From IMG/VR virus record IMGVR_UViG_2703718862_000005: 64,000 bases of DNA. One strand, given 5' to 3'. Shown one piece after another: positions 28,401-31,400 of this stretch. A program made the position numbers. Position 1 is the first letter of the stretch. Each line of letters starts with the position of its first letter. The DNA comes from a virus (Duplodnaviria > Heunggongvirae > Uroviricota > Caudoviricetes).

Positions 28401-31400
28401 TTATATAACGATAAAGAACAGGGAGTGAGTTATGTCCAAAAATGACCGAATGGTGGGCATCAGCCGCAGAACACTCGTTAAATCAACCGCGATAGGTTCT
28501 CTGGCGCTGGCTGCAGGCGGTTTTTCTTTACCGTTCACCCTGCGCAGTGCAGCGGCAGCGGTACAACAGGCCAGCGAAAAAGTGATCTGGGGTGCCTGTT
28601 CCGTCAACTGTGGTAGCCGCTGTGCACTTCGTCTACATGTTAAAGATAATGAAGTCACCTGGGTGGAAACTGACAACACCGGCAGCGACGAGTATGGCAA
28701 TCATCAAGTACGCGCCTGTTTGCGTGGTCGATCCATCCGTCGGCGTATTAATCATCCCGATCGCTTGAATTACCCAATGAAACGCGTGGGCAAACGCGGC
28801 GAAGGCAAATTCGAACGGATTAGCTGGGATGAAGCCCTGGATACTATCGCCAGTAGCCTGAAGAAAACCGTCGAACAATATGGCAATGAGGCTGTATATA
28901 TTCAGTACTCTTCGGGGATCGTTGGCGGCAATATGACCCGCTCTTCGCCATCAGCCTCGGCGGTCAAACGCCTGATGAACTGCTACGGCGGTTCACTCAA
29001 TCAGTATGGCTCCTACAGCACCGCGCAAATTTCCTGTGCCATGCCCTACACCTACGGCAGTAATGATGGCAACAGCACCACGGATATTGAAAACAGCAAG
29101 CTGGTCGTGATGTTTGGTAACAACCCGGCAGAAACCCGCATGAGCGGCGGTGGCATCACTTATCTTCTTGAAAAAGCGCGCGAGAAATCGAACGCCAAAA
29201 TGATTGCTATCGATCCGCGATATACCGATACGGCTGCTGGTCGTGAAGATGAATGGCTCCCTATTCGCCCGGGCACCGATGCCGCGCTGGTTGCGGGTAT
29301 TGCCTGGGTATTGATTAACGAAAATCTCGTTGATCAACCTTTTCTCGATAAATACTGCGTCGGCTATGACGAAAAAACCTTACCCGCAGATGCACCCAAA
29401 AATAGTCACTATAAAGCCTATATTCTTGGTGAAGGTGATGATAACACAGCGAAAACGCCGCAGTGGGCTTCGCAAATTACCGGTATCCCGGTAGACCGTA
29501 TCATCAAACTGGCGCGTGAAATTGGCACAGCAAAACCCGCTTATATCTGCCAGGGCTGGGGGCCGCAACGCCAGGCAAACGGCGAACTGACTGCACGCGC
29601 TATTGCTATGTTACCTATTTTGACGGGCAATGTCGGCATCAGCGGCGGAAATAGTGGCGCGCGTGAATCGACCTATACCATTACCATAGAACGCCTGCCG
29701 GTGCTGGATAATCCGGTCAAAATGTCAATCTCCTGCTTCAGCTGGACAGATGCTATCGATCATGGTCCGCAAATGACGGCAATCCGCGACGGCGTCCGCG
29801 GCAAAGATAAACTGGATGTGCCCATTAAGTTCATCTGGAACTTCAAGGACTTGAAGCGGACCCTTAGTAGGCCTGAGGTCCTGCATTGAGTCAAGGACTT
29901 TGTGTCAGGCTTTGTGTCAGCCTTGTGTCATTAGACGGGATGTCTAGACGGCTGGTCAGCCCCCCGGTGGCCTCGGTCTGGACTTGAGGCGGGCTATGGG
30001 GGAAGTCTGCTGGCTTAATGTATTAGATGGTCATTCACATTTTTCTGTCAGAAACCATCGGTCCCACTGTGAGTCCAAACCTAAGCCCCCAGAAGCCCAC
30101 CCACAGCCTTAGACAGAGTGTCGAATACATTCACACCGAGTCGACCGGAGAGGACCATATAGAGACCCACAGAGAGGAACACGAGTTTATAGACCAGAGT
30201 CAGGAGGGACCTTAGGTCTGCGGAAGTCATAGACATAAAGCCTCCTTCGTCTATTGTACTACTGCACTAGATAACTAGTACAAAACAAAGGTCCAGACCA
30301 TTGGTCCAGACCATAGTTATCATGATGATTGGAACGATTGAACGGTAGGCACTTTACGTCTCACCCACTGTTCAGCTTCAGCCAGTGACCAGCATAGCCG
30401 CTTATAGACTCTGCGTGTCATCCAGATTGTTGCTTGATATCGTCCACCCTCCACAGGCTGTATAGATGTCTTAATCACAGTGACAGGCCACCACCTGAAG
30501 TCCTGCTGATATTCAGTCCAGACTTACCTCTGCTCATGGTCTTACCTCCCTCGGTCTCCTGACCTTGGGTATCGACTACAGCTTGCTGAGCGTCATCTGG
30601 AGGAGCTACAGGAGGAGCTACAGGAGGCGGGACCGAAGCCCCACCTTGAGTCCCACCACCACCTGTCAGGCCCTTGGCGATGGACCTGAAGCCTTTACTA
30701 ATGCTCTTACCCATTGGTCTTACGCTTCGGTCTTGGTGAACTTCAGGCGTTTGACTACAGGCAGGACGGCAGTAGCTGAGCCAGTGCCCATCTTGATGGT
30801 CGTAGCAGCTTCAGCGACAACGAACACTTTACCGAGGATTTCCAAGTCGTGGGACTGAGAGTCGCCATCACGTGAAAGGACGACCGTAATATTCTCGCCA
30901 TCGTGACGGAAGCAACCGAAGCTCAGAGCCGTGAAGCGTTTAGCCAGCATGAATACACCCTTGTCTTCACCGTTGTAGTAGGCGATGTCTGTTCCCAGCA
31001 TATCGACGATAGCGTCTTCACCGGAGAAGCCTTGCTTAGCAGCCAGACGGGACAGTGCTTTCAGTTGGCTCTCATGAGCGATAATACCGTAGTCAGACAC
31101 CTCAGAACCGAAAGAAGACTCTGTGTTCTCATACAGAGCGTCCATGATAGCGTCTGCCTTAGCGGTCAGGCTACCAGTCAGGACAGGAAGCTCTACGGTC
31201 TTCAGCAGCTTAGAGGATTCCAGAACGTCGACCATGCGAGCGTTGATGGTACGGACCACATTCTCACAGATGTTCATAGCGTCCTGCTGAAGTGTGCCCT
31301 GAGTGAATCCGGTGGATGACTTGGCGTCCCAGAGCTTGGTCTGCTCAGAGATGAGAATAGCCTGCTCGATTGGTTCGACCACGATTTCTTGTCCAGACGG

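Follow-up and report, generated by a model that had tools for sequence, protein, structure and literature searches.

In the stretch of DNA considered here, a 64,000-nucleotide IMG/VR record (IMGVR_UViG_2703718862_000005, Caudoviricetes) that we refer to as the window, the Escherichia coli gene ynfE is split by a 6,646-bp island (29843-36488). This locus raises the question of what kind of element has settled in the gene, how it recognises its site and whether its departure would serve the host. A reading made from the sequence alone (hereafter the sequence-only reading) had proposed that the attachment (att) architecture of the island implies a reversible, site-specific disruption of ynfE. Having followed up this proposal, we consider it probable that the region is the attL end of a tyrosine-integrase island inserted at ynfE codon 470 and equipped with TTGWGTCA arm sites, the island itself being likely a satellite of T7-like phages.

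The 5' part of ynfE (28432-29842, + strand) holds codons 1-470 and ends in ...KFIWN according to the open reading frame (ORF) list and its translation, and the 3' part (36489-37504, + strand) runs from YAGNTLVNQ... through the stop codon. The coding sequence (CDS) is interrupted within its Molybdopterin domain, and all plausible genes of the island lie on the minus strand. An exact 11-bp repeat, CATCTGGAACT, marks the two junctions (29832-29842 and 36478-36488), and the breakpoints of ynfE coincide exactly with its two copies. In the attL core (29828-29842, + strand) this repeat is preceded by AGTT, i.e. the bacterial B half-site, which reads AGTC in most attR copies; in the attR core (36474-36488, + strand) it is preceded by AGTC. 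The core repeats proposed for both junctions were exactly positioned, but identity extends over 11 bp only, the 15-mers (left AGTTCATCTGGAACT, right AGTCCATCTGGAACT) matching at 14 of 15 positions.

Joining 28432-29842 to 36489-37504 in silico produced a single open frame of 808 codons (...VPIKFIWNYAGNTLVNQ...). Over a 600-bp stretch spanning the junction, this sequence, which encodes an intact 808-aa YnfE, aligned without gaps and at 100% identity to uninterrupted alleles such as the intact ynfE annotated in strain 2012EL-2448. The site is uninterrupted in 5108 of 5426 complete E. coli genomes. It had been suggested that alleles lacking the island be compared, and that the proposal would fail if they did not contain the core at this position; the empty ynfE alleles hold the core a single time, at the insertion position. 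The claim that precise excision would restore ynfE was in this way borne out, and excision by the island integrase would rebuild the gene base-perfectly. Reversibility itself is an expectation and not an observation.

We further compared 20 junctions from 14 ynfE-type islands (both junctions for 10, one for 4). The 9-mer TCTGGAACT within the core was invariant. Immediately left of the 11-mer, every attL had the bacterial T, and attR had C or in some cases T; immediately right of it, every attR had the bacterial A, and attL had either T or A. This partition is explained by a crossover inside the 11-mer, which produces such a pattern, and strand exchange appears confined to the 11-bp identity, most likely within the 9-mer. 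Next to the core, the palindrome CTTCAAGGACTTGAAG (29841-29856, + strand) contains AAGGACT (29845-29851) and is kept in every attL of the ynfE type. AGTCCAT and AAGGACT form inverted repeats in the reconstructed attP, 10 bp apart and centred on GGAACT. The palindrome would be the C' core-type half-site, partner of AGTCCAT across attP, and the two motifs together would be core-type half-sites around a 6-7 bp overlap, (T)GGAACT. A short attP/attB identity duplicated at attL and attR is the arrangement of lambda-type systems. A target-site duplication made by a transposase was considered and rejected: the similarity between attL and attR continues imperfectly past the 11-bp repeat, the island encodes a tyrosine integrase and the same site has been reused across genera.

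The distribution of the island points to the same specificity. Its int-attR module was found in 149 of the 5426 E. coli genomes (~2.7%), always on the chromosome; at least 80% of the window island was present in 21 genomes, and the six E. coli copies compared had identical junctions. In a scan of one genome per species, the same ynfE codon was occupied in Shigella flexneri, Leclercia adecarboxylata and Kluyvera intermedia, and in Citrobacter the attR side was recovered (junction sequences: CTTCTGGAACTAC in Kluyvera, TATCTGGAACTA in Citrobacter). The int genes are 87-96% identical between genera, and some island copies carry insertion sequences (IS) or a frameshifted int. With one ynfE codon used in five genera, the site-specific part of the original proposal stands, and we regard integration as site-specific and integrase-mediated, as the junctions support. 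Sister islands of 6.4 kb were also retrieved from Rouxiella sp. and from Logan contigs (L013-L017), near a tRNA-Gly/type III secretion region; they sit at the 3' end of the tRNA-Gly gene, with core TCCCTTCGCCCGCTCCA and a 35%-identical integrase, behind which a DUF4145 gene follows. We call these glyU-type islands.

Why ynfE should be chosen is less simple than the sequence-only reading had it, i.e. that the paralogue ynfF lacks the core and targeting is specific to ynfE for that reason. ynfF, which is adjacent to ynfE and intact in the window, indeed has no core match at up to 1 mismatch, its homologous site TTTATGGTGCT being identical at 6 of 11 positions. However, a third paralogue, dmsA (E. 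coli K-12, L061, locus ~1585-1601), has ATCTGGAACTA at the codon corresponding to the ynfE attB, that is 10 of the 11 core bases including the entire invariant 9-mer, and not one of the 5424 E. coli genomes with a dmsA gene had it interrupted. As dmsA shares the invariant core and is never occupied, the core alone does not explain the specificity for ynfE. The left half-site reads AGTTCAT in ynfE versus AAATGAT in dmsA; judging from these sequences, specificity must come either from the flanking half-sites or from selection against insertions in dmsA.

Inside the island ends, the 20-mer TTTGTGTCAGCCTTGTGTCA occurs exactly twice in the window (29911-29930 and 36301-36320), where shuffled sequences gave an expectation of 0.01 matches even allowing 3 mismatches, and GCATTGAGTCAA likewise occurs exactly twice (29883-29894 and 36429-36440). 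The exact repeats announced for both ends are really there, but they are not of two different kinds: both reduce to one 8-bp motif, TTGWGTCA, with a T/A variant. Seven of its 11 copies in the window fall in ~240 bp of the two island ends, all on the + strand (starting at 29886, 29900, 29912, 29923, 36302, 36313 and 36432), whereas by simple arithmetic the background rate predicts fewer than 0.01 copies there. Four direct copies make up a putative P' arm (29886-29930, + strand), 43, 57, 69 and 80 bp from the core, and are conserved while the surrounding DNA diverges. On the other side, a distal pair of direct copies, TTGTGTCA (36302-36320, + strand), lies 176 and 165 bp from the core within int codons 31-37, and a proximal copy, TTGAGTCA (36432-36439, + strand), precedes the int start codon by 20 bp, at a distance of 46 bp from the core; together they would form the P arm.

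In the three most divergent relatives, identity over the motif columns is 84% (attL) and 96% (attR), versus 68% and 76% over the other arm columns. The distance between the core and the first attL site takes values of 43, 53, 64 or 75 bp in relatives, i.e. steps of ~10.5 bp, and in one relative (L012) the entire P arm is displaced by exactly 11 bp. This same relative has a different core (AGTTCAATCTGAACTA, in another gene), yet it retains the TTGWGTCA motif. In glyU-type islands, TTGWGTCA clusters are lacking and TGTRACYA(AC) repeats, a motif absent from the window, occupy the corresponding places; relative to ynfE-type islands, their capsid genes are 79% identical, their promoters are the same and their integrases are only 35-36% identical. 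The repeats track the integrase clade and not the cargo, which favours arm-type sites over packaging or replication repeats. Conserved above background, helically phased and covarying with the integrase, the repeats match the integrase arm-site organisation as initially proposed: they lie on both sides of the core (4 + 3, co-oriented), are distinct from it, as in lambda-type att sites, and are well supported as arm-type sites of a lambda-like tyrosine integrase, which would be the protein that binds them.

The arrays could instead be packaging or replication repeats, iterons, or sites for another island protein such as an excisionase, which we judge improbable. In the circular form they would flank a region holding three short collinear matches to terminal repeats of T7 and Citrobacter phage CR44b (see below), T7 itself shows short direct-repeat arrays next to its terminal repeat, and a 122-aa ORF of the island also differs between ynfE-type and glyU-type islands, just as the repeats do. 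Yet glyU-type islands, which share the promoters, the capsid gene, a pause-like motif and presumably the helpers, have a different repeat that tracks the integrase, and TTGWGTCA is found on both sides of the core, helically phased and in a single orientation, as is typical of arm-type sites.

The presumed partner of these arm-type sites is the 527-aa tyrosine integrase encoded by int (34829-36412, - strand; Pfam PF00589, 1.8e-13, residues 334-509). Its candidate catalytic residues (R373, H473, R476, H499 and Y506 or Y509) are invariant across relatives of 35-100% identity, and more than 1000 close homologues are full length from the same Met. A sequence profile search of PDB matched catalytic domains only (XerC/XerD/Int). 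The N-terminus of a Rouxiella relative matches DUF6538 (E = 2.4e-6) over a part that aligns with residues ~46-85 of the window integrase (QLVRRANGRYTIRFRLKG...SVSTRSTDRRVA). In the AlphaFold2 model, which is poor, residues 1-43 are predicted to be disordered, and strands at 46-50, 56-60 and 70-73 followed by a helix at 79-99 form the best-scoring part, with a predicted local distance difference test (pLDDT) score of 58-70. Residues ~46-100, modelled with low confidence as three strands and a helix, may be arranged like an arm-binding domain. ynfE-type integrases have a 45-residue N-terminal extension whose codons 31-37 contain both distal P-arm sites. The extension is poorly conserved as protein save for the patches DTRLTQ and SPYLY, and these lie exactly over the arm sites and ATACAGATAGGGAGAC; this coincidence with DNA motifs indicates that the constraint in the extension acts on DNA. 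A single match to integration host factor (IHF) sites, with one mismatch, was noted at 36412-36424, the motif not being enriched over chance. Taken from its sequence, the att module behaves like a lambda-type heterobivalent system, arm binding being predicted.

The nature of the island is suggested by what lies between its ends. A promoter for a phage single-subunit RNA polymerase, CCTAAACTATCACTATAGGGAGA, was located at 33936-33958 (- strand, +1 at 33941): 33936-33949 matches the T7 promoter perfectly from -8 to +6, and the whole is 22/23 identical to the annotated phi10 promoter of phage CR44b (genus Kayfunavirus). A second phage-type promoter, CTTGATTATCACTATAGGGGAAC (34365-34387, - strand), has two mismatches to the T7 core at 34365-34378. 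Both promoters are directed towards the island operon with its capsid-like gene. The promoter 17-mer AAACTATCACTATAGGG was also present in IMG/VR contigs; almost every one of these is 39-40 kb long, and CR44b itself is among them. Every island examined has 1-4 phage-type promoters (2-4 except in L012), always on the coding strand. In some islands, tandem promoters ~28 bp apart differ in their upstream specificity (..GCACTCACTATAGGG, ..ACCCTCACTATAGGG, ..ACCCACACTATAGGG), with T7-like, T3-like and other upstream specificity regions represented across L001-L019.

The island holds ~9 ORFs, i.e. int, a capsid-like gene, a gp7.3-like gene, a KilA-N gene and small ORFs, and no polymerase, portal, terminase, protease, replication or tail gene was recognised among them with Pfam and PHROGs. 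The 331-aa ORF at 30720-31715 (- strand) has no family match by sequence (Pfam, PHROGs). Its AlphaFold2 model, built with remote homologues in the alignment, is that of an HK97-fold major-capsid-like protein (pLDDT 82.8, predicted template modelling score 0.79), and Foldseek matched it with probability 1.00 to phage capsids and encapsulins (PDB, BFVD); the matches include phages Kp9, PhiM1 and HRP29, which we take to be T7-like. In a library of 1.8 billion proteins, homologues above 70% identity were found only within the island family, remote ones being 25-44% identical, and the protein is unrelated in sequence to T7 gp10. Directly beside it, a 79-aa ORF rich in glycine and proline (30475-30714, - strand) is a homologue of T7 gp7.3, a host range and adsorption/tail-assembly protein (PHROG phrog_1320, E = 1.8e-11, with a weak match to Pfam VirionAssem_T7). 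In lacking a complete set of virion, replication and packaging genes, this integrative element shares a feature of phage satellites. A degraded T7-like prophage was ruled out by the constant size and gene content of the island across genera.

Two features of the DNA itself bear on how such an element might be packaged. The length of the island is 6.37-6.78 kb (window and L001-L017), and six units would amount to 38.2-40.7 kb, the size of a T7-like genome. Secondly, a pause-like motif, GGGTCTCCCTATCTGTATC (36344-36362, - strand), is invariant as DNA in 13 islands. In the form GTCTCCCTATCTGTAT (minus strand of 36344-36362) it is conserved in all islands (4683-4702 in L017, ~4712-4733 in L013), and in glyU-type islands its place within int differs in both codon position and reading frame, which identifies it as a DNA element. 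It matches the right edge of the CR44b terminal repeat at 23 of 27 positions, this being the best match on the + strand of the whole CR44b genome, and also resembles T7 TGTCCCTATCTGTTACAG; that edge holds the class II RNA polymerase pause signal ATCTGTT of the concatemer junction. Two short and weak minus-strand matches to the T7 left terminal repeat, TTCCCCCATAG (29994-30004) and CTCACAGTG (30065-30073), follow the order of T7 nt 24 and nt 2 and are collinear with the pause-like motif across the reconstructed attP. When the island is integrated, the pause-like motif is upstream of the promoters; in the circle it would lie ~115 bp beyond attP, in the path of transcription. We treat these terminal-repeat-like matches as a lead rather than a result. 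That the attP region doubles as a T7-type concatemer-junction packaging site, with packaging of hexamers, is a tentative suggestion which we hold to be doubtful.

The same cargo could belong to an island that is primarily an anti-phage device, whose promoters sense infection, whose decoy capsid, gp7.3 mimic and KilA-N/Rha/AP2-type effector poison assembly, and whose integrase module serves only for occasional transfer. Tandem promoters of different specificities in some islands, the variable effector-like module, the lack of portal, terminase, protease and replication genes, and a capsid-like protein unrelated to T7 gp10 are all compatible with such a device, which we nevertheless hold to be unlikely. 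Known defence systems were not matched: PADLOC returned only a weak candidate-family match, to the KilA-N protein. Moreover, the unit length varies little around one sixth of a T7-like genome, the pause/packaging-like motif is conserved as DNA, and the spread between genera is recent; these three features fit packaging and transduction. Defence and satellite roles are not mutually exclusive, and known satellites also interfere with their helpers.

We therefore give somewhat better than an even chance to the island being a helper-dependent satellite of T7-like phages. The whole reading, namely a hitherto undescribed family of T7-like satellites that senses infection through its promoters, brings its own capsid protein, has a dual att/packaging site and travels as hexamers, is in our view evenly balanced. 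Several results weigh against our overall interpretation of the locus. Neither the capsid-like nor the gp7.3-like protein had a tblastn match in 50,697 phage records, and the similarity to the concatemer junction scored 37 versus 33 for the best chance match, i.e. barely above it. On the side of recombination, the N-terminus of the window integrase had no Pfam match, and its AlphaFold2 model was poor overall (pLDDT 42.7, with a shallow alignment). The location of the distal P-arm pair inside the int ORF is unusual, and its conservation could be partly due to coding. No excisionase of the Xis, AlpA or Cox type was recognised in any island ORF, small ORFs included, with Pfam and PHROGs, although a small unrecognised directionality factor may be present. 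No convincing host promoter was found for int, the best candidate matching at 9 of 12 positions and overlapping the start codon. The predicted attP junction TGGAGTYCATCTGGAACTWCAAGGACTTGAAGC had no match in IMG/VR or in JGI metagenome contigs. Finally, our literature search found no publication that links the island to any phage or describes a satellite of T7-like phages. With no recognised excisionase and no attP junction found in these searches, the reversible part of the sequence-only reading is less well supported than the site-specific part.

In an excised circle, the attP junction would be expected to read ...ATGGAGTCCATCTGGAACTTCAAGGACTTG.... Two contigs that might have represented this form were examined and rejected. 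In the 6661-bp Logan contig L012, k-1 overlaps at both att junctions show only that empty and occupied sites co-occur in the metagenome. The 6601-bp contig L062 of an NCBI isolate assembly (GCA_028016055.1) is uninterpretable in this respect, as it ends 26 and 16 bp before the core, at positions that are polymorphic; such a separate contig of the island interior could reflect two island copies or mixed forms in the culture.

An immobile remnant whose att-like repeats are relics would also leave no excised form in public contigs, and some copies with IS insertions or a frameshifted int do exist. This explanation is very improbable: the window int is intact and full length, the att motifs are visibly constrained, and the distribution is patchy (149/5426 genomes), with near-identical copies across genera.

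For a mobile satellite, the following course of events can be proposed. The N-terminal domain of Int (~46-100) would bind the seven TTGWGTCA sites and connect the arms to the core within an intasome, in the manner of lambda Int, and Int would integrate the circular form into ynfE codon 470. Upon infection by a matching T7-like phage, the phage RNA polymerase would transcribe the island operon, and the island would excise by means of a directionality factor, possibly encoded by one of the ORFs behind the first promoter. Excision would bring the terminal-repeat-like motifs of attL and the pause-like motif of attR together, downstream of the phage promoters, and the pause-like motif, if it is a packaging signal, would be active only after excision. 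Helper functions would replicate and package the island, its own HK97-fold protein would make or perturb capsids, and the units of one sixth of a genome could be packaged as hexamers.

The gene ynfE might instead be under regulated gene integrity, i.e. the island might be a domesticated switch that excises to restore a selenate/DMSO-type reductase activity, comparable to skin/sigK and phi10403S/comK. Elements of 7-8 kb with an integrase that split the Molybdopterin domain of ynfE have been catalogued with TIGER in E. coli and Shigella flexneri (Eco892.7.ynfE and Sfl13.8.ynfE; Mageeney et al., Nucleic Acids Res 2020, PMC7192596), and were flagged there as a candidate for regulated gene integrity, ynfE being among 19 new candidates proposed on exactly such grounds, i.e. 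a split in the Molybdopterin domain that excision restores precisely. Matched by their description, they very probably belong to the same family as the window island, so the disruption of ynfE by integrase elements is already known and is not new. The catalogue entries give coordinates and a domain-disruption test, and the parts of that paper dealing with ynfE note no arm sites, cargo analysis or link to T7-like phages.

A fixed CDS position used in independent integrations, in several genera, and precise restoration of the frame are indeed features of regulated gene integrity. The cargo, however, is virion- or phage-related and stands behind promoters of lytic-phage RNA polymerase, no part of the island has to do with anaerobic respiration, its carriers amount to only ~2.7% of E. 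coli genomes, and the adjacent paralogue ynfF is intact. Moreover, the glyU-type sister islands have the same cargo and do no harm where they integrate, at the 3' end of tRNA-Gly, so that gene disruption is not a property of the family. In skin/sigK, phi10403S/comK and SpyCIM1/mutL, a recombinase element likewise lies in coding or regulatory sequence and precise excision restores function, but there excision forms part of a host programme that the cell outlives, whereas the cargo of the island points to excision during lytic infection. If the island is a satellite of lytic phages, it would excise in a dying cell, which makes a regulatory switch on ynfE unlikely; we see little prospect for this explanation. 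ynfE, which has a redundant paralogue, is probably an insertion site that is tolerated rather than a regulated gene, and its repair would be incidental to excision.

The remaining content of the island is summarised from left to right. The last gene of the operon is a 51-aa hydrophobic ORF without family match (30081-30236, - strand), near a terminator-like GC-rich hairpin followed by a T-run (30290-30312, - strand). Beyond the gp7.3-like and capsid-like genes, a conserved 163-aa ORF (31791-32282, - strand) with a charged, coiled-coil-like C-terminal half is present in all relatives; that it has a scaffold role is a guess. The KilA-N domain protein (32548-33306, - strand; Pfam PF04383, 1.3e-9) belongs to a variable module: between the promoters and the capsid module, the cassette swaps among KilA-N, Rha, AP2-domain, HNH endonuclease or unassigned genes (L003-L006, L015-L017). 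In the long leader between the phage-type promoter and the KilA-N gene, a 44-nt hairpin-containing sequence (AACCCGTTTTCTGGGTT) is duplicated (33438-33481 and 33634-33677, 196 bp apart); Rfam gave no match, including for this duplication. The 122-aa ORF (33967-34335, - strand; phrog_23123, 1.1e-8), directly downstream of a phage-type promoter, has distant homologues in virulent phages, all annotated as 'hypothetical'. Between int and the promoters lie tandem 83-bp repeats, with two full copies and a partial third (34416-34597), which could be an origin or a regulatory array. A 24-nt stretch (34724-34747) is 23/24 identical to CR44b 38563-38586, a segment between the rightmost promoter and gene 19.5 of that phage.

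Comparison with known systems places the island as follows. Like lambda Int and its attP, it combines a tyrosine recombinase, a short crossover identity and arm repeats on both sides (2 + 3 in lambda, 3 + 4 in the island); an N-terminal strand-strand-strand-helix region is tentatively predicted for it. Unlike lambda Int, the integrase has no detectable sequence similarity outside the catalytic domain, it is 527 aa long with a disordered N-terminal extension of 45 aa and a long linker, and its gene points away from attP, with the 5' end adjacent to it and two arm sites in the CDS, no Xis being recognised by the searches above. Among satellites, cf-PICIs are likewise integrative and encode their own HK97-fold major capsid protein. 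They are larger, possess a complete head module with portal, protease, head-tail connectors and small terminase, and rely on the tails of their helpers; of this head module the 6.6-kb island has only the capsid-like gene, accompanied by the 163-aa ORF and the gp7.3-like gene, and it has promoters of lytic-phage RNA polymerase. By gene content it does not belong to the cf-PICIs. According to the accounts available, PICMIs and VEIMEs are also very small (~5-7 kb), some of them being satellites of virulent phages, and are packaged as concatemers that fill a normal helper capsid; the length of the island, one sixth of a T7-like genome, would fit concatemer packaging of this style. As described in these accounts, PICMIs and marine VEIMEs differ from the island in having no capsid protein and in occurring in marine Vibrionaceae and plankton, and no promoters for phage RNA polymerase are noted for them. 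With its capsid gene and its enterobacterial host, the island falls into neither group. The use of a lytic phage's own RNA polymerase promoters would, if true, make the island a new variant of satellite.

The att architecture as such is textbook; its practical yield lies in exact attL, attR and attB sequences, an arm motif and, with dmsA, a natural specificity control. The locus is also a reminder that an island which splits a gene need not be a regulatory switch. No virulent phages have been studied better than the T7-like ones, on which phage therapy and biotechnology rely heavily, and the island family occurs in Shigella, Citrobacter, Kluyvera, Leclercia, Enterobacter and Rouxiella as well as in ~3% of E. 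coli genomes. If the island reads T7-type promoters, it could alter the outcome of infections by T7-like phages, move DNA between genera and, where a strain produces T7 RNA polymerase, give rise to leaky expression.

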